From: a virus
Taxonomy: Duplodnaviria; Caudoviricetes
Reading direction: 5' to 3' (one strand)
Virus record (IMG/VR): IMGVR_UViG_3300032218_003059
Location: 22,242-86,241 of that record
DNA length: 64,000 nucleotides
Below, in pieces: positions 6,003 through 22,700 of the stretch (position 1 is its first letter; each line of letters starts with the position of its first letter). The notes below the pieces were generated by a model. The model did not search any database. It was given only the letters and a program-made list of their open reading frames with translations, and had not been told where the DNA came from. Position numbers and translations under genes: made by a program.

Positions 6003-6344
6003 ATGTCTATGGATATTAAAAGAATTGATCAGTCGGTTGTTGAAGAAACACGCTTAGGTATATATGTGTGGGAAATGCCAGACGGCAGATGGATTGGAGA
6101 TGATGATGGTAACTTCTTATCAGTCACATCAACCAAAGGAAACAAGTCAAAGATCGATGCTTTGGTTAGAGAAGTTAGCTCGTATGGTATATACGAGGGC
6201 GCACCCAAGTTTCTTTCAGGAAGACGCAAAATCGATGACGAAGAGTTTGAATATCAAAAGCAAAGATTAAACTGGGGATTAACTCCAGACCCGCTAGACA
6301 TTGGCGTATATAAAGATAATATTAAAAACGGGGGAAAGCCATAA
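6003..6344 (+). CDS. Conserved hypothetical phage protein preceding the portal
   Basis: 113-aa ORF whose stop overlaps the portal ATG. Confidence 0.7.
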   Translation: MSMDIKRIDQSVVEETRLGIYVWEMPDGRWIGDDDGNFLSVTSTKGNKSKIDALVREVSSYGIYEGAPKFLSGRRKIDDEEFEYQKQRLNWGLTPDPLDIGVYKDNIKNGGKP

Positions 6345-7933
6345 TGGAACACATGGATGATAATGAACAAATTTTAGATATAGAAGTTAAGAATTCTTCT
6401 GACACATGGACAGATTTTGTTAAGTCCTCAACTCCAACAGTTTCCTCAGATCCATTTGATATTGAAGTTAATGAAATTAAAAAACTTAATGGCCTAGGCT
6501 CATCATTTAAAAGAAAAGTTTCAAGAGAATTTAGTAAGTCATTTACAGGAAAAGACGGAGCTCAAACACAACAGAACTTAATGGCTCAGGCTATTACTGG
6601 TTACGCCATGTTTGATTTAGTAATGCCACCATTTAACCTAGACTACCTTTCAAAAATTTATGAACTATCAACATATAACTATTCTGCAATTAATGCAAAG
6701 GTTGCTAATATTGTTGGACTAGGATATAGTTTTACAGAAACAAGAAAAACTAACGAAGCTCTTGATGGAATAACAAGCCCAGAGCAATTAGATCGTGCAC
6801 GTAAAAAGATTAATAGACTCAAGCAAGATGTACAGCTATGGCTTGACTCTACAAATGATGAAGATACATTTACAGAAACTTTAGTTAAAGTATATACAGA
6901 TTTAGAAACAACTGGAAATGGATATATTGAAATTGGTAGAACTGTAGCAGGGGACATTGGCTATATTGGGCATATCCCAGCAAAAACAATGCGTGTTCGT
7001 AGAATGCGTGATGGATTCATGCAGCTTCTATATGGCAAGGTTGTATTCTTTAGAAACTTTGGAGATCAAGAAACTCCTAATCCAATCACAGACGGAACAG
7101 ATAGACCAAATGAAGTTATTCATTTAAAGAAATATACACCAATGAATAATTACTACGGAATTGCAGATATTGCTGCAGCTCAAAATGCTTTAGCTGGTAA
7201 CGAATTTGCTGGCAAGTATAACCTTGATTATTTTGAAAACAAAGCGGTACCAAGATATATAATTACGGTAAAGGGAGCAAAGCTTTCTCCAGAAGCAGAA
7301 AGAAAACTTCTTGAATTTTTTCAGGTTGGCCTTAAGGGAAAGAATCACAGATCCTTATATATTCCCCTTCCAGCCGATACACCAGATTCAAAGGTTGATT
7401 TTAAAATGGAGCCAATTGAGGCTGGCACACAAGAAGGTTCATTTAATATTTATCGTCAGGCAAATAGAGATGAAATACTTTTGGCCCATAGAGTCCCTAT
7501 TTCAAAAATTGGAATTCCAGCAGGCATAAACCTTGCAGCAGCTAGAGATGCAGATAAAACATTTAGAGAGCAGGTCTGTAAGCCAGCCCAGGATATTTTG
7601 GCTAAAAAAATTAATAGAATTATTGAAGAAAAAACAGATGCTTTAATAATTAAATTTAATGAACTTACACTTACAGATGAAGATACCCAATCTAAAATTG
7701 ATGAAAGATATCTTAGAATGCAGGTAATTACTCCTAATGAAGTTCGAGTAAGAAAAGGCATGGTTCCAATTGACGGAGGAGACGAAGTTGTAGAATTAAA
7801 GCCACAAGCAGCAGCAGAGCAATCTGCTCAGGCTGGAAATACTAGAGCAAGAACTCAGGCAAGAGATGCAAATTCCCCAGATAAATCTGGAGAGGCTCGC
7901 CAACCAAAAGGTGAAGGTAGAGTAACGGCCTAA
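6344..7933 (+). CDS. Portal protein
   Basis: DLETTGNGYIEI, EVIHLKKY..YYG, ILLAHRVP, ITPNEVR motifs; position. Confidence 0.92.
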   Translation: MEHMDDNEQILDIEVKNSSDTWTDFVKSSTPTVSSDPFDIEVNEIKKLNGLGSSFKRKVSREFSKSFTGKDGAQTQQNLMAQAITGYAMFDLVMPPFNLDYLSKIYELSTYNYSAINAKVANIVGLGYSFTETRKTNEALDGITSPEQLDRARKKINRLKQDVQLWLDSTNDEDTFTETLVKVYTDLETTGNGYIEIGRTVAGDIGYIGHIPAKTMRVRRMRDGFMQLLYGKVVFFRNFGDQETPNPITDGTDRPNEVIHLKKYTPMNNYYGIADIAAAQNALAGNEFAGKYNLDYFENKAVPRYIITVKGAKLSPEAERKLLEFFQVGLKGKNHRSLYIPLPADTPDSKVDFKMEPIEAGTQEGSFNIYRQANRDEILLAHRVPISKIGIPAGINLAAARDADKTFREQVCKPAQDILAKKINRIIEEKTDALIIKFNELTLTDEDTQSKIDERYLRMQVITPNEVRVRKGMVPIDGGDEVVELKPQAAAEQSAQAGNTRARTQARDANSPDKSGEARQPKGEGRVTA

Positions 7934-15131: not shown

Positions 15132-18100
15132 ATGTCTAATGAAAATGTAGTAATGAATTTAACCGCTAATGCGGATTTTTCTAATCTAGTAACAAGCGTT
15201 AATAGAGTTACTGCCTCACTTGCAAAAATGCAAGAGCAAATTGGTGCAAGCAATAGAATTTTAACTGGACAAATTGCAGCAACTAATAAAGCATTTTCTG
15301 ATACATTACGACAAACAGGACAATTTGGTACACACTTTGTAACCTTAAATGATGATGTTGCAAAATTTGGCAATCAATTAGATAAAGGTCAATTAAAGCT
15401 TAGAGATTATTACGGTGCATGGCAACAGCATGCAAAAACGTCTGGCGGATTAGTTAGAGACCTAGCAGCACAGCAAGTACAATTACAGAATGCTATATTG
15501 CAACCCTTGGGCAAAAATGCTCAAGGGCTAATGCAATTTAATGTACAGGTTCCAAAAGGCTTAGATGTTGTAAAAAATAAAACAGCTCTAGCATCTCAAG
15601 AGCTAAAGATCATGAATAAGGTTATGCAAGAAGGCGCTAATCAGATGATTAACTGGGGTAAAAATACTCAGTGGGCAGGTCGTCAATTAACAGTAGGATT
15701 AACAATACCATTAGCAGCATTTGGCGCAGCAGCAGCAAAAGCATTTAGAGAAGCAGATGCAGAACTAGTTCGTTTAACAAAAGTTTATGGTGGAGTAGCT
15801 GCAACATCTCAAGCAGACCTTAGTAAAATTAGAAAAGAAGTGTCTGCAACTGCAACTAGTTTAGCAAAACAATATGGTGCTTCATATAAAGATACTATTT
15901 CATTAGCTGCAGATTTAGCTGCTACTGGAAAAGAAGGAAATGATTTATTAAAAGCTACGGCACAAGCAACAAGACTTATGGTTCTTGGTGAAGTAGATAG
16001 ACAACAAGCAATGAAAACAACATTAACATTGCAAAATACTTTCAAAGAAAATACCAGCCAATTAGCAGAATCTATAAATTTTCTTAACGCAGTTGAAAAC
16101 CAAACTTCCCTTACACTTCAAGATTTAACTGAAGCAATTCCAAAAGCTGGTCCAGTAATAAAAGCACTTGGTGGAAGTGTAAAAGATTTAGCCCTTTATT
16201 TAACAGCAATGAAAGAAGGAGGAATTGGCGCAGCAGAAGGAGCAAATGCAATTAAATCAGCTTTTGCTTCTCTTATTAATCCAACAGCTAAAGCTACAAA
16301 TTTATTTAAGAGCTTTGGAATAGATTTACAAGGAATGGTTAAAAAGAATACAGGCAATACAACTGCCATGATTCTTGATTTACAATCTGCATTAAATAAA
16401 TTAGATCCTTTATCAAAATCTAAAGCAATTGAACAACTTTTTGGTAAATTTCAATTTGCTAGAATGACAGCGCTTATTGATAATTTAGGAAAACAGGGAT
16501 CACAATCATTAAGGGTATTAGATTTATTAAAACAATCAACAGGAGACATTGCAGCGATTGCAGACCGAGAATTAAAACAGGTTACCGAATCAGCCTCTGG
16601 TAAATATAAAAGGGCTGTAGAAGGCCTTAAAGCCGATCTAGCAGGCATTGGAGATCAGTTCTTAAAGATACAAACTTTCTTTATTAATGTAACAGATAAA
16701 ATTATTAGATTTGTAAATATATTGCCTGGACCAGTAAAAACAATTCTTACTTTGTTAACTGGATTAACTGCAATTGCAGGTCCTCTTATTATGCTTGTTG
16801 GTGTAATGGCAAACTTTATTGGATATATAATAAAAGGAGCATTTCATTTTAAAGCATTATTTAAATCAGGGGAAGGCTGGAGAATGCTTACTCCAGAGAT
16901 CCTTGCAGCTCAAAAAGCTGGATCTTTAATTGAAAAAACATTTTATAGCGATGCAAAAGCAGCACTATCTTTAGCTGAAGCTTTATCAGTATTAGAAGGT
17001 GGATATTCATCATTACAATCAAAGATGAACGCAGGTGCAATAACAGTACAGCCTGCAATATCTACAATTGCAGGCTCACCGATTTTAGCAGGAACTGGAG
17101 CGGGATCAAGAGTAGTTGATCCTAGAAATCCATTAGTAGGACAACAGGGAACTAGAGCATCTGCACATATTAACCCATTACGTGGAAGAACACAAGAACA
17201 AATTGCAGCATCTACAATATTTGGATTTGTTCCAGGCCCAATTCCAGTAAATAATGCACTTAAAGATACTCCACAAATGTATGCCAATGGAGATCTTCCT
17301 AATATACCAGGGCTTACAACTTCACCAAGTAAGCATGGTCCAGTTTCTTCTGGAATAGTTGCATCAGAAGCAACAAAATTTCAAACTTTAATGGGCACAA
17401 TGTCAATGATGAGCAAAACAGAAGTTGCAGCAATGAAAAAAGAAATTCAAACTACTGGAACAGTAAGTACAGAATTTATGACAGCATATTCTTCATTATT
17501 GCCAGAAATTACGTCTATATCTCAGAAAGCAGTAACTTCTTCAGCAGCAATTGTTTCTCAAGTTCAATCTGGAGAAATGCAATTATCTGCAGCTAAAGAA
17601 AAATTAATTCAGCTTAATTATGAAATTGAAGCAGCGATGGGTGCTGCAACTCAAGGTGTTGCAGCCTCACTTGGAAGAACTGCTAATTTAACAACAGTTC
17701 CAGGAATTGATCAGCCAGTAATTGATCCAAAAGGTAAGTCTAATATGAGACAGCTATTTGGAAAAGGAAATGCTTCATGGATGGACAAACTTGCAGGGGT
17801 ATTTGGAATTAAAACTTGGGGAGCAAGTTATTCAACACATACAACAATACCAAAAAGATTAAATTCAGGTGGAGCAGTTTATAATCCAAATAAAGATGGA
17901 AATATTGTTCCTGGAGACACATCAATAAATTATGATACAGTTCCAGCAATGCTACAGTCTGGCGGTTTTATATTAAATCAAACAGCATCAAAAAACAATC
18001 CAGATCTAGTACAATTAGCTAAAAACAAATATGCATCTGGCGGATCAGTTGTACCAGCATTATTAACTGCAGGAGAAACTTATTTTCCTCCTGAATTAGC

Positions 18101-21100
18101 ATCTCAAATGATGCCAACACTTAATATTGCAAATAGTGGAACAAAAGTTCAATTAAGAGCATTAGGTGGTTTAATATCACCAAAAAAAGGAAACTACGGT
18201 TTAATTCCTTCAGCTTCAATTGTAGAAAAAATGATAGCTTCATTGGCTAAAAATGAATATGCAGCAAGATGGTTAAAAGATTATAATTCTAAACCATATG
18301 CATCAAATGGAGTTATAAGAGGTTCTGCAGAAAGCATTTATAAACTACTTGGTATTACACCTAAAGATAATGAATCATTTAATCAATTTGGTCATATGAT
18401 CAGAACTTCAAAAACAAAAACTTCAGTCATTCCTGGTTTTGTTGCTAAACCCCCTACTGCTGTTTATGGAAAAAAAGCTGATTTTATTGGCTTTAATAAA
18501 TCTCTTAGTGGAAATGGAATATCAGATAAAAATATTCGTAAGTTTATAGAAAGTTTATTAGCTGGAGGCAGTGGATCAATAACTGGATCATCTTCTCAGT
18601 TTGTTGAAGCACTTACAAAGAATAATATTTTAGATAATGTTATAGCTAAAGAAATTAATCAAAAAATACAATCTGAATATGTAAGAGAATTATTTAGAAT
18701 GAAAAGAAGAGGGGTTACAGTAACAGATGAAAATAACCCATACTTTAATGTTTCTAATTCTATAATAAAACAATATTCTGAAAAAGTTCCACATTTAGAT
18801 AATTTATGGAACCAGTTTAATTTAAAAAATTCGGCAGTAAATCCACATTATTTATCTGAAATGAATAGCCCTGCAAAACGTGGCCCTGGAAGTATTGGTG
18901 TAAATGATATAACTTTAAGCAATCCAGCTAATGGAATGGGAATTAATGTTGGCAAATTAATTGGTTCTGAAGGTACAGCAGTGTATCATTCAAATAATCC
19001 AGTATGGCAAGAGTCATTGCTTCCAAAATCAAGAATGGGAATAATAACAAAAAATTGGCCTAAAAAACAACAATTTTATCCAATGGGAAGACAATATACA
19101 TTAGGTAATCAAGACCCTTTACATGGCCCACTTCAAATTGGTAAGTCCATGCAGATGCAGCATAGTGCTGGATATGATCCATATGCAGCTAAGAGCGTAT
19201 ATTACTCAGACAACTTTGGTAGATTAAATATAATGGATGCATTTCTTACAGGAACACAAAAAGAACGTGGAATGTATGCAACAGCACAATACATGGGCGG
19301 GAACCTTGGAGTAATGTCACAAATGGAGCGTTTAGGCAACCACCCACTTGGACCAATAGCTGCAATGAAATCATTACAAAAGAAATTTACTGGAAAACTT
19401 TATCGTGGAATCATGTTGGGAAAAACTCAAAATGCCGTCCCAGCAGATATAGAAAAAGCAATCATAGAAGCAAGAACTACTGGAAACCTTGAAGGTTTAT
19501 TGGGTAGAGAATTTATAATGAGAAGATCTTCCTGGAGTCAAAAAGAAAATATTGCACAATATTTTTCTCCTGGTCATGGTGTAAATCCAGAATCTATTTT
19601 ATTTGAAGCAAATGTTAAAAATAGAAATGTTTTGCCTTCATCACAACTTTTTCCAAACAAAGCATTTCAAGCCCCTTATGGACAATCATGGAACAAAACA
19701 AAATTTGGTAGCGGAGCGCAATCAGAACAAGAATCAATATTTGGCGGAAAATTTAAAATAGTTGGAATGCAAGGCGGTAAGGTACAGCTTGAAACAGTTG
19801 TTGATGCAGCTCGTGAAATGGGTGGGCCAGTAAATTCTGGAAGACCTTACCTTGTTGGAGAAAAAGGTCCAGAGCTATTTGTTCCAAAACATGATGGTGG
19901 GATAATTTCTCATTACGCACTAGGAGGAATGGTTTCTTCTGGAAAAAATACATATGGTTTAAGTCCAGCAAAAGCAATGGTGGGCAAAAATATTGCGGGA
20001 CTTGCGGCTTGGATACTAGGTCCAATGTTATTGCAAAAAATGGGCGTAAGTTCAGGAATTACAAATGGTTTGATGACAGCTGGCTTTGCAGGTCAAGCAG
20101 CCTATTCAATGCATTCACAATATAAAGCTTTTAAAGGAGCTGGTCAAGGAGCTGAAATAGTTGGCGATGTTGCAAAAGCAGAGGGAGCAGTAAGCAAACT
20201 TGCACCAAGATTTGCACAGCTTGCTGGAGCCGCTTCAAAAGCAGCAGGCCCAATAGGATTGGTATTTACAGCAATACAAGCCTACAGTTTCTTAGAAGAA
20301 AAAAAACGACATTCTCAAGAAGTATTTGCAACCTCATTTGGACTTTCTGCAAAAGCAGCTAAAGAAGCTGGAATACAGATACAAAATCTTGACGCTCAAT
20401 TAAAAGCTTCATCAGATGCAGCGGGAGCAACTAAAACAAAAGCAGCATTATTATTTTCACAAGATAGCGCTGGAATCAAAGGCTTATCGTTAACAGTAGG
20501 ACAGCTTAAATCACTTGAAACATCAGTAAAGAAAACAATGCCTACATATATGGAAGCATTTAAAAAAATGACTGGAAAAGAAATTCTTACAGGTGCAGCT
20601 AATATCAAAGCGCAATGGGTGGCAATGGGAATGAGCATACAAGATGCAAATTCTAAAATATACACACTTGTTAAATTAACTCATGGCTCACAAGCTGCAT
20701 TAAATGCAATAACATCTAGCGCATTTACAAAAATTACAGATAAAGCATCTGCTTCAGAATATGCAATAAAACTTGTTGGGCAAGCAATTAAAAATATTAA
20801 TAATGTTGGTGCAGCTGGAGCTGCAAATGCATTAGATACTTTCTTTCAAATTCAAACAGCAAAACTACAAGCACTTCAACAAAAAGCAGCAAAAGATGGT
20901 AAAGGTACACCTTACAGCAGTTCATACTCAGATACAATGTCTAGCTATACAAAAAGTGGTTATGGCGATATTAAAATAACAAGAGATATAATAACAGAGC
21001 TTTCAAAAACTCAACCCATACTTGCAAGCATACTTAATGCTACAGATACAATTGGCTCATCTTTAAGTAAATGGATAATTGCATCAAGCGGCTCAATAAC

Positions 21101-22700
21101 TAATCTTAGCAAAATTTCTACACTTACAGCAGGTCAAGCAAATACAGTTGCTCAAGCAATAGTTGCAGTTCAAGATGGAGCAAACAAAGCATTATCTAAC
21201 GACAAGCTTGCAGGAGCTGCAGAAAAAAGAATAATAACTACTCAAGCCGCTTTAAATAAAGCAAGTGTGGCATCTGCAGGAATGACAGTTGTAGACCAAA
21301 TATCTTCTAAAAAAAGAATTAAATATTTAGAAGATGAAATTAAAAAAATTAATGAAGCAGCTTCAGCTCGCAAAAAAGCCATGGAGCAACAACAGTTAGA
21401 TGCAGATACTTTAACTCAAATACAAAAGAAACAATTGGAGTACCAGCAAGCCCTTGCTTCTGGAGATCAGTCTGCTGCAGCTCAAGCTCAACTAGATATA
21501 CAACAGCTTTCACAAAATAGGCAAACAGACACTGCAAAAAATTCAATAGACATTGCTGCAGCAAATAAAACTGGTCCTTTACAACAAGAGATAGATGCCA
21601 TTAACGCTTCTCTCACCGCATCGGCAGATGCACAAACATTAGCTGCAGATTCAATGACTAATCTTTCAAAAAGTTTAGATGATCTAATATCTAAAGATTT
21701 ATCACTTAAATCCTCTTTGCAAAAAGCTATTGAAGATAAAAGAATTTTTGGTACAGATTCTAAAACATTTAAAGAAGATATTAAAGTTATGCTAGATGAC
21801 TATGCAGCATTAACTGGACTAAAAAAATCAACTTCTGGAGTTTATACGGATGCAAAAGGAAATGTCATAACAGCAGAAGGATTATATGCTTCATTAGAAA
21901 AAGCAACGCTAGATAATATCAATGTTGCTGGGAAAACAGTAATTGTAACAGCTGCTGGAGAAATATTAACTGGTAAAAATTTAACGGGTGGAGATCCTTT
22001 AATAGGACTTCCAGCAAAACAAAAAGCTGCAATTACAGCAAACGAAAAAAAACCTTTGGATCAACAAGATCCAAATATTCCACATCCAACAGCAGTTGGT
22101 AAAAATGGTCCTATAACTGGAATGCCAAAACCAGGACTTAAAAATAAAAACCTTGGTCCAGCTACAGGCGCAGAACCAAAAGCACAAACAATAGGGGACT
22201 ATATATATGCTGGAAATGGAATGGTTGTACTTAAATCAGATCCATCACAAGTTGTAGGTCAGTGGTATACATATACTGCAGCAGGCAGAGTTGCATATGC
22301 TCAAGGAGGATTAGTAAATCATTATGGAAATGGTGGATCAATCAGAGGTCTTGGAACCAGCATATCAGATTCAATTCCTGCATATCTTTCAAATGGAGAG
22401 TATGTAGTAAAAGCAGCTGCTGTTAAAAAATATGGCGTACCTACCTTTGACGCATTAAATTCACAAAAGTTTAATATTCCTTCTGTTGTAAGTAGTTCAA
22501 ATTCCATGTATAATAACAATTCAGCTGGCTCTGTTATCTATTTAACTCAAAATATTACAGCAGCAGATGGAATGGATACAGAATTATTGTCAATGAGAAT
22601 TGTTGACATGGCAAAGAAAGCCATAAGCGCAGATGTAAAAGTTTCTTCATCAAAAATGGGTGGGACTAAAGAGTTTGGAAGCAGGGTGATGAACACATGA
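15132..22700 (+). CDS. Tape measure protein (2522 aa) with internal accessory domains including an ADP-ribosyltransferase-like domain
   Basis: N-terminal TP901-type TMP core (WAGRQLTVGLT, FLNAVENQT, LFGKFQFAR); position after the chaperones. Confidence 0.95.
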   Translation: MSNENVVMNLTANADFSNLVTSVNRVTASLAKMQEQIGASNRILTGQIAATNKAFSDTLRQTGQFGTHFVTLNDDVAKFGNQLDKGQLKLRDYYGAWQQHAKTSGGLVRDLAAQQVQLQNAILQPLGKNAQGLMQFNVQVPKGLDVVKNKTALASQELKIMNKVMQEGANQMINWGKNTQWAGRQLTVGLTIPLAAFGAAAAKAFREADAELVRLTKVYGGVAATSQADLSKIRKEVSATATSLAKQYGASYKDTISLAADLAATGKEGNDLLKATAQATRLMVLGEVDRQQAMKTTLTLQNTFKENTSQLAESINFLNAVENQTSLTLQDLTEAIPKAGPVIKALGGSVKDLALYLTAMKEGGIGAAEGANAIKSAFASLINPTAKATNLFKSFGIDLQGMVKKNTGNTTAMILDLQSALNKLDPLSKSKAIEQLFGKFQFARMTALIDNLGKQGSQSLRVLDLLKQSTGDIAAIADRELKQVTESASGKYKRAVEGLKADLAGIGDQFLKIQTFFINVTDKIIRFVNILPGPVKTILTLLTGLTAIAGPLIMLVGVMANFIGYIIKGAFHFKALFKSGEGWRMLTPEILAAQKAGSLIEKTFYSDAKAALSLAEALSVLEGGYSSLQSKMNAGAITVQPAISTIAGSPILAGTGAGSRVVDPRNPLVGQQGTRASAHINPLRGRTQEQIAASTIFGFVPGPIPVNNALKDTPQMYANGDLPNIPGLTTSPSKHGPVSSGIVASEATKFQTLMGTMSMMSKTEVAAMKKEIQTTGTVSTEFMTAYSSLLPEITSISQKAVTSSAAIVSQVQSGEMQLSAAKEKLIQLNYEIEAAMGAATQGVAASLGRTANLTTVPGIDQPVIDPKGKSNMRQLFGKGNASWMDKLAGVFGIKTWGASYSTHTTIPKRLNSGGAVYNPNKDGNIVPGDTSINYDTVPAMLQSGGFILNQTASKNNPDLVQLAKNKYASGGSVVPALLTAGETYFPPELASQMMPTLNIANSGTKVQLRALGGLISPKKGNYGLIPSASIVEKMIASLAKNEYAARWLKDYNSKPYASNGVIRGSAESIYKLLGITPKDNESFNQFGHMIRTSKTKTSVIPGFVAKPPTAVYGKKADFIGFNKSLSGNGISDKNIRKFIESLLAGGSGSITGSSSQFVEALTKNNILDNVIAKEINQKIQSEYVRELFRMKRRGVTVTDENNPYFNVSNSIIKQYSEKVPHLDNLWNQFNLKNSAVNPHYLSEMNSPAKRGPGSIGVNDITLSNPANGMGINVGKLIGSEGTAVYHSNNPVWQESLLPKSRMGIITKNWPKKQQFYPMGRQYTLGNQDPLHGPLQIGKSMQMQHSAGYDPYAAKSVYYSDNFGRLNIMDAFLTGTQKERGMYATAQYMGGNLGVMSQMERLGNHPLGPIAAMKSLQKKFTGKLYRGIMLGKTQNAVPADIEKAIIEARTTGNLEGLLGREFIMRRSSWSQKENIAQYFSPGHGVNPESILFEANVKNRNVLPSSQLFPNKAFQAPYGQSWNKTKFGSGAQSEQESIFGGKFKIVGMQGGKVQLETVVDAAREMGGPVNSGRPYLVGEKGPELFVPKHDGGIISHYALGGMVSSGKNTYGLSPAKAMVGKNIAGLAAWILGPMLLQKMGVSSGITNGLMTAGFAGQAAYSMHSQYKAFKGAGQGAEIVGDVAKAEGAVSKLAPRFAQLAGAASKAAGPIGLVFTAIQAYSFLEEKKRHSQEVFATSFGLSAKAAKEAGIQIQNLDAQLKASSDAAGATKTKAALLFSQDSAGIKGLSLTVGQLKSLETSVKKTMPTYMEAFKKMTGKEILTGAANIKAQWVAMGMSIQDANSKIYTLVKLTHGSQAALNAITSSAFTKITDKASASEYAIKLVGQAIKNINNVGAAGAANALDTFFQIQTAKLQALQQKAAKDGKGTPYSSSYSDTMSSYTKSGYGDIKITRDIITELSKTQPILASILNATDTIGSSLSKWIIASSGSITNLSKISTLTAGQANTVAQAIVAVQDGANKALSNDKLAGAAEKRIITTQAALNKASVASAGMTVVDQISSKKRIKYLEDEIKKINEAASARKKAMEQQQLDADTLTQIQKKQLEYQQALASGDQSAAAQAQLDIQQLSQNRQTDTAKNSIDIAAANKTGPLQQEIDAINASLTASADAQTLAADSMTNLSKSLDDLISKDLSLKSSLQKAIEDKRIFGTDSKTFKEDIKVMLDDYAALTGLKKSTSGVYTDAKGNVITAEGLYASLEKATLDNINVAGKTVIVTAAGEILTGKNLTGGDPLIGLPAKQKAAITANEKKPLDQQDPNIPHPTAVGKNGPITGMPKPGLKNKNLGPATGAEPKAQTIGDYIYAGNGMVVLKSDPSQVVGQWYTYTAAGRVAYAQGGLVNHYGNGGSIRGLGTSISDSIPAYLSNGEYVVKAAAVKKYGVPTFDALNSQKFNIPSVVSSSNSMYNNNSAGSVIYLTQNITAADGMDTELLSMRIVDMAKKAISADVKVSSSKMGGTKEFGSRVMNT

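Follow-up and report, generated by a model that had tools for sequence, protein, structure and literature searches.

RESULTS

A tape measure gene with an embedded enzyme-like domain

The stretch analysed here, referred to as the window, comprises 64,000 nucleotides (bases 22242-86241) of IMG/VR record IMGVR_UViG_3300032218_003059, an 86,241-bp sequence of an uncultured phage with a CheckV completeness of ~80% and a guanine-cytosine (GC) content of ~35%. Portal, protease, capsid, and adaptor genes lie upstream, and minor tail protein genes downstream, of one very long gene whose product of 2,522 amino acids (aa) can be assigned as the tape measure protein (TMP): its best PHROG is phrog_10030 (tape measure, E 1.5e-126), its residues 242-438 match PF10145 (PhageMin_Tail, E 2.6e-25 in Pfam), it sits in the tail block, and it has C-terminal motifs in common with the solved TMP 8zdo. 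Inside this TMP we found a domain with the predicted fold and the catalytic motifs of an ADP-ribosyltransferase (ART), a nicotinamide adenine dinucleotide (NAD+)-using enzyme. The features discussed below are collected in Table 1.

Table 1. Features of the tape measure gene and of the ART module inside it; positions are those of the window
Feature	TMP residues	Window positions	Strand	Basis or remark
TMP gene		15132..22700	+	single open frame, 2,522 aa; flanked by tail genes and minor tail proteins
Strongly hydrophobic segment	535-571	16734..16844	+	Kyte-Doolittle window 19, maximum 2.18
First Gly-Gly cassette cluster	~909-1030	17856..18221	+	direct reading: LNSGG..., DTVPAMLQSGGFIL, YASGG..LLTAGETYF, RALGGLISPKKGNYGL
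Variable globular-looking region	1030-1296	18219..19019	+	16-24% mean identity across homologues
N-terminal part of ART module	1297-1374	19020..19253	+	accompanies ART in all homologues
Invariant linear motif LGNQDPLHGPLQIG	~1324-1337	19101-19142	+	always accompanies ART module; low model confidence
Predicted ART-fold catalytic domain	~1375-1558	19254..19805	+	two AF2 models, fold searches
R1425 in KLYRG, predicted NAD-binding Arg, beta1		19404..19406	+	invariant in 120/120 homologues; model 2 strand 84-95
S1467-W-S1469 in RRSSWS, S-x-S (STS-type), end of beta2		19530..19538	+	ends model 2 strand 127-136
E1532-Q-E1534 in SEQE, ExE, start of beta5 after ARTT-like loop		19725..19733	+	both Glu invariant
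Generic TMP motif GGPVNSGRPYLVGEKGPELFVP and YALGGMVSSGKNTYGL cassette	1560-1615	19809..19976	+	outside ART fold
Terminal TMP cassette YAQGG...SDSIPAYLSNGEYVV	~2390-2440	22299..22451	+	matches twice-repeated motif in gp16, PDB 8zdo

Predicted fold of the embedded domain

Two AlphaFold2 (AF2) models were made, model 1 for residues 1300-1600 from a 30-row alignment and model 2 for residues 1334-1560 from 38 rows, with residue 1 of the model corresponding to TMP residue 1334. Model 1 has a predicted local distance difference test score (pLDDT) of 67.8, with 74-87 in the core, and model 2 reaches a pLDDT of 84.0 and a predicted template modelling score (pTM) of 0.79, with most 10-residue core blocks at 86-97. 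When both models were compared with the PDB by Foldseek, all of the matches listed were ARTs, including Vis (4xzk, E 1.5e-5 and 1e-4 for the two models), C3bot1, Tre1 (6dre/6drh), Certhrax, HopU1, C2-I, CDTa, iota Ia, and Plx2A. VIA-align, an all-against-all comparison of the model with 48,161 representative chains that is independent of Foldseek, gave ART-fold chains in all of its top 25 rows, and the first unrelated fold appeared at Z 3.7-3.8. Its leading ARTs, at Z 10.3-9.0 with a root mean square deviation of 3.1-3.9 over 141-152 residues, are 8za7_B (a Listeria ART effector), CPILE-a, C3bot2, VIP2, Certhrax, Vis, C2-I, Tre1, C3stau2, and HopU1, and its weak matches include Scabin and Arr. 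Among the predicted viral structures in BFVD, the matches are phage ARTs. They include ModA, the Percival MuF-ART, and fusions annotated as head morphogenesis, portal, or minor capsid proteins, and not one of them bears the name of a tape measure protein.

The placement of the catalytic residues in model 2 is consistent with these searches. R1425 lies within beta1, the S-W-S motif closes beta2 just ahead of a short helix, and E1532 and E1534 stand at the end of a 27-residue loop resembling the ADP-ribosylating turn-turn (ARTT) loop, E1534 being the first residue of strand 201-214 (beta5). The model shows N-terminal helices with a split beta-sheet core, an Arg on beta1, an S-x-S motif at the end of beta2, and ExE at the start of beta5, as in an R-S-E ART. 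A preliminary description, made from the DNA sequence, had proposed that an ART with these three motifs is embedded in the TMP at residues 1370-1560, to be checked by a search of a predicted model against ART structures. Both search programs return the ART fold over residues ~1375-1557, and the two models, the motif invariance described below, and the strand placement agree with the proposal; the strings it quoted (KLYRG, RRSSWS, IAQYF, SILFEANV, SEQE, and SIFGGKFKIVG) and their codon positions are likewise read in the open reading frame (ORF) as given. Taken together, the models argue strongly that residues ~1375-1558 adopt a divergent mono-ADP-ribosyltransferase fold of the R-S-E (cholera-toxin/C3/VIP2-like) type.

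Invariance of the catalytic motifs

A search restricted to this region retrieved 281 homologues, all of them giant TMPs, of which 120 with 38-94% identity were used in a local alignment. Seven residues (G1421, R1425, G1426, S1467, E1532, E1534, and G1539) are 100% invariant in these 120 homologues, and only conservative changes occur at three neighboring positions (Y/F1424, W/F1468, and S/T1469, with W/F and S/T at 92%/8%), the middle residue of the S-x-S motif being W/F instead of T. The same columns are invariant in A4, an alignment built independently from the domain alone in 18 metagenomic loci with identities down to 32%, and the catalytic R-G, S-W-S/T, and ExE are retained in two distant relatives, P0151 and P0152, found by exhaustive profile search at E ~6e-12. 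Because the pattern is invariant in the 120 homologues and holds in A4 and in both distant relatives, it is more than a chance resemblance. Conservation of these residues in homologous TMPs had been named beforehand as a point on which an ART assignment could fail, and they are kept in all three samples. On these alignments, we consider the predicted R / S-x-S / ExE site to be intact and invariant. It lies in a conserved island, residues 1301-1600, with a mean identity of 44-64%, against 16-24% in the upstream flank (residues 1051-1300) and 21-35% in the downstream flank (residues 1601-2100).

A sequence-orphan ART family confined to tape measure proteins

At the level of sequence, the domain stands apart from named ART families. 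Neither the 400-aa region nor the whole TMP matched an ART family in Pfam by hmmscan at E<=1, and a search with PF03496 across the whole 86-kb record gave no match. Membership in PF03496 (ADPrib_exo_Tox), PF01129 (ART), or PF26816 (Mod_ADP_RT) is thus not reached by score, so we file the domain as an R-S-E ART at the level of the fold. The nearest named clusters in the ESM Atlas are mostly viral ART families (PF03496, PF26816, PF01129, and DRAT, with one DUF4765 cluster), and the top scores for the ART domain are 0.92 and 0.91. When A4 was aligned by hhalign with a small family alignment of T4 ModA/ModB (P 2.7e-4), LYRGI fell on LYRGI and SSWS on SfS; the R1425 motif aligns with LYRG/LWRG of ModB/ModA, and single-sequence alignments to ModA and to ModB place EQE on EQE.

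Among 1.84 billion representatives, the domain family forms 46 clusters at 50% identity, all of giant TMPs or fragments of them, and the exhaustive profile search of the same set recovered TMPs and fragments only, with no bridge to known ARTs. A search for proteins of near-equal length gave fragments and no stand-alone homologue. In 50,697 deposited phage records, the domain has no copy, and only the generic GPELFVP motif was matched.

The ART as part of an optional and mobile module

We examined 80 IMG/VR loci that had been selected solely by similarity to TMP residues 101-600 (67-75% identity). The ART is encoded by 12 of them and is missing from a complete TMP in 46, while 22 are truncated, leaving 58 informative loci. 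The ART-less TMPs align with the TMP studied here over residues 1 to ~1000 and then again from ~1585-1750, with an intervening stretch of 25-583 residues (197-583 except in two clean deletions). In those two loci (L139/L141), the upstream region is kept to residue 1290 and continues directly into the cassette that follows the ART, a clean absence of ~315 residues. Moreover, the module is found at three positions: most TMPs have it in the middle of the protein, P0054-57 and P0133 have it immediately ahead of the terminal cassette, and in P0151 it occupies residues 788-987. At every one of these varying positions, it adjoins a TMP cassette. Residues ~1297-1600 can therefore be read from these alignments as an optional, mobile module of ~300 residues, and the survey for presence or swapping of the domain suggested by the preliminary description shows it to be both optional (12 with, 46 without) and movable.

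Other recognizable enzymes were sought in its place in the ART-less relatives, and this idea was abandoned: no Pfam domain was found in 37 of their central regions. Because these regions fall mostly into one similarity cluster by single linkage, we make no claim of a polymorphic effector. Some longer relatives (3,150-3,820 aa; P0050, P0052, P0062, P0063, P0071, and others) carry CHAP (PF05257) and LysM (PF01476) domains besides the ART, and an OmpA-like domain (PF00691) is also present in some longer ART-bearing TMPs. From these domain matches, it appears that one TMP can hold several enzyme or binding modules.

Surroundings of the module

The N-terminal part of the module has low pLDDT in model 1, whereas model 2 shows a pair of short strands at residues ~1355-1369. 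The linear motif LGNQDPLHGPLQIG within this part could be a processing or docking site. Upstream, the variable region 1030-1296 is separate from the ART, being present in the ART-less L135/L138 and missing from the ART-bearing L164/L129/L134/L140/L131; searches that included Pfam, NCBIfam, and the ESM Atlas gave it neither a family nor a fold or look-alike. Downstream, the motif GGPVNSGRPYLVGEKGPELFVP (residues 1560-1600) matches at least 536 IMG/VR TMP stretches. The Gly-Gly cassettes at ~909-1030, after the ART, and at the C terminus are alike at the protein level; in the DNA, convincing direct repeats are found neither around the module nor between the cassettes.

In ~60 of the IMG/VR loci kept, only 85-100 aa separate the internal motif GGPV..PYLVGEKGPELFVP from the C terminus of the TMP, and 12 of 55 TMPs with a near-C-terminal motif of the GPELFVP type match PF09718 (Tape_meas_lam_C). 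In the TMP studied here, the internal motif is followed by ~920 more residues, which end in a second terminal cassette. The 2,522-aa protein therefore resembles a tandem of two TMP units, and a doubled terminal motif is also seen in the solved TMP 8zdo. A general slot for enzyme cargo upstream of the GPELFVP motif was considered and, for the 55 other TMPs sampled, rejected, as these gave only TMP families.

On the minus strand, a 90-aa ORF (window 19753-20025) runs across the end of the ART domain; located within plus-strand coding sequence that is strongly conserved, this ORF is most likely spurious. Elsewhere in the window, the portal (6344-7930) is 56-59% identical to portals of large (120-134-kb) Streptomyces siphoviruses; the record has a GC content of ~35% despite this Streptomyces-phage-like portal, and its match to WhiB is weak and below threshold.

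DISCUSSION

A probable host-directed enzyme carried by the tape measure

The predicted fold and the invariant site suggest that the module is probably an active NAD-using enzyme. How it would serve the phage may be pictured as follows. As a segment of the TMP, the module would be assembled into the tail lumen, probably in an incompletely folded state; the TMP would be expelled at the start of infection; the module would then reach the NAD+ of the host cytoplasm and fold; and it would ADP-ribosylate a host target, favoring the phage through takeover or anti-defence. ExE, as opposed to QxE, is typical of Arg-directed transferases, and Arg is for this reason the expected acceptor. That the module would enter the host as infection begins, before phage genes are expressed, is plausible, and we infer it from T4 Alt and from what is known of TMP ejection. 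For the reading as a whole, in which the TMP carries an active ART of the Arg type (or another NAD-using enzyme) that is set free in the host upon ejection, we see a modest balance in favor. A broader and more tentative idea, which we put forward with less than even confidence, is that the TMPs of long-tailed phages serve as injection vehicles for cytoplasmic effectors, with the ART threaded in ahead of the DNA, refolding, and modifying a host factor within seconds of adsorption.

Parts of this scheme have parallels in known systems. T4 Alt, ModA, and ModB are phage encoded and have the same Arg / Ser / ExE signature, with LYRG, S-x-S, and EQE in the same columns as here, and Alt is carried in the virion, injected with the DNA, and modifies host RNA polymerase (PMC5512222, PMC9503650). 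However, Alt is a separate internal head protein, in contrast to the tail-borne ART of this phage, and the sequence similarity is marginal. Closer in construction are the MuF/portal-ART fusions and polyvalent proteins, in which an ART is in frame with a virion structural protein and has been read as an injected effector (PMC7302621, PMC5512222, PMC9503650). Microbacterium phage Percival gp4 is such an in-frame fusion, and its MuF-ART is one of the BFVD matches mentioned above. In those fusions, the carrier is a head protein and the ART is C-terminal and recognizable by PF03496, whereas here the carrier is a tail TMP and the ART is internal and a sequence orphan. No MuF or portal domain was found in the TMP by Pfam, so it does not belong to the MuF-type or polyvalent fusions, although it may be similar in its working.

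The best structural neighbors are C3, VIP2/iota/C2-I/CDTa, Vis, Certhrax, Tre1, and the Listeria ART effector (1r45, 1qs1, 5gtt, 2j3v, 4xzj, 4fk7, 6drh, and 8za7; Z 8.5-10.3 over 140-150 residues). They share with the TMP-borne ART a helical N-terminal lobe, a split beta-sheet core, and the R / STS / ExE layout, but their sequence identity to it is 10-20%, and they are secreted, type VI secretion, or binary-toxin proteins that have their own delivery parts and known targets. The CHAP and LysM or OmpA-like domains in relatives of the TMP are likewise in frame and presumably deployed on ejection, giving a precedent for TMP-borne enzymes; in contrast to the ART, which needs NAD+, they act on peptidoglycan outside the membrane without a cytoplasmic cofactor. 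Effectors of the Sle1 type in actinobacterial contractile injection systems also have a TMP-like scaffold that carries an exchangeable functional domain and is ejected from a tail-like particle (PMC13277306). This likeness is one of description, and these are bacterial systems rather than phages, with described functional domains that are not ARTs (PMC13277306).

Objections and alternatives

Several points weigh against delivery of an active enzyme by the TMP. No ART match for the domain was obtained in Pfam, PHROGs, NCBIfam, or PADLOC at lenient thresholds, and phmmer and hmmsearch against the PDB with the domain, the domain profile, and the whole-TMP profile returned BamA and ribosomal noise and a TMP motif match only. 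The hhalign probability for the comparison with T4 ModA/ModB is just 41%, the TM-scores of the structural matches are moderate (0.33-0.53), and a common fold is not proof of activity. As to delivery, three copies of a folded ART of ~200 aa would not fit in the tail lumen, so that an unfolded stored state must be assumed, and the enzyme must reach the cytoplasm because the NAD+ it needs is there. Residues 535-571 are likely, by their hydrophobicity, to be a membrane-inserting part of the TMP, and they are the sole strongly hydrophobic stretch found in it. Crossing of the membrane by an internal TMP segment would be the weakest step of the mechanism.

These points leave room for an enzyme that is active but works elsewhere, namely, late in the producer cell while the TMP is soluble with its chaperones, so that the fusion merely couples its expression to the late genes. 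We regard this opposing account as unlikely, though it has several things to commend it. The TMP is made in an NAD+-containing cytoplasm, so its site of synthesis already holds the cofactor; there is just one strong hydrophobic segment to bring the protein through a membrane; and we found no Macro or ARH reversal (ADP-ribose-removing) enzyme in the 86-kb record, as would fit an enzyme used in a doomed cell. However, internal fusion at varying positions next to cassettes would be an odd way to time expression, particularly as stand-alone late ART genes are common (PMC9503650), and the known virion fusions of ARTs with MuF or portal proteins are read as delivery devices. The chemistry could also differ from that proposed, if the ART fold served an NAD+ glycohydrolase or a transferase with a non-protein acceptor such as a nucleic acid or a small molecule. 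Enzymes of this kind share the fold and, in many cases, its motifs as well, as in Tne5 (PMC13285283), the weak structural matches to Scabin and Arr point in the same direction, and the acceptor is not readable from sequence. What makes this improbable in our judgment is that the closest structures are protein-modifying enzymes of the C3/VIP2/Vis/Tre1 type, that the invariant ExE is typical of Arg-directed transferases, and that NAD+ depletion would harm a phage that needs a living host.

That the domain is catalytically dead, a structural relic acting as a spacer or as cargo-like bulk in the TMP, would accord with the failure of every sequence model to recognize it and with the possibility of filler among the elements that set TMP length. 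We think this very unlikely, since the catalytic residues are 100% invariant in 120 homologues, whereas identity in the flanks falls to 16-35%, and since most close relatives do without the module, from which it follows that it is not needed for tail building. Stand-alone ARTs do occur in freshwater actinophages, as the preliminary description had noted; they are VIP2-like, and a "Trojan horse" role has been published for them (PMC6802176). Such an anti-eukaryote toxin, directed at grazers that ingest infected cells or virions, would suit structural neighbors that include actin- and Rho-modifying toxins. Yet the domain is buried in a tail protein with no translocation (B) component or secretion signal attached, and its best matches also include antibacterial ARTs (Tre1 and the Listeria ART effector) and enzymes of the T4 Mod type, so that a role against grazers seems to us scarcely credible here. 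Delivery of an active ART through ejection of the TMP remains the reading that we prefer.

Implications for tailed phages

According to a systematic survey, virion ARTs show a bias towards myoviruses, and siphoviruses, it was argued there, are less equipped for protein injection (PMC9503650). The two comprehensive surveys of phage ARTs treat head-packaged forms only, and the words "tape measure" are absent from them; our search of the literature pairing "tape measure protein" with "ADP-ribosyltransferase" likewise found no description of a TMP-ART fusion. To our knowledge, all virion-delivered ARTs described so far are proteins of the head (T4 Alt, together with MuF, portal, and polyvalent fusions). 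A strongly conserved ART with intact catalytic motifs in a TMP of the siphovirus type suggests a route of delivery in addition to that one, by way of the tail lumen. If TMPs do act as effector vehicles, the host factor modified would belong to transcription, translation, or defence, and internal TMP segments would cross the cytoplasmic membrane. The ART would also provide a handle on the fate of TMP parts after ejection: because the enzyme needs cytoplasmic NAD+, early ADP-ribosylation would report the topology of the TMP. Moreover, it defines a sequence-orphan ART family that standard annotation has overlooked. Judging from the modelled fold and from analogy with injected phage ARTs, this phage probably brings a ready-made host-modifying enzyme into the cell with the contents of its tail.

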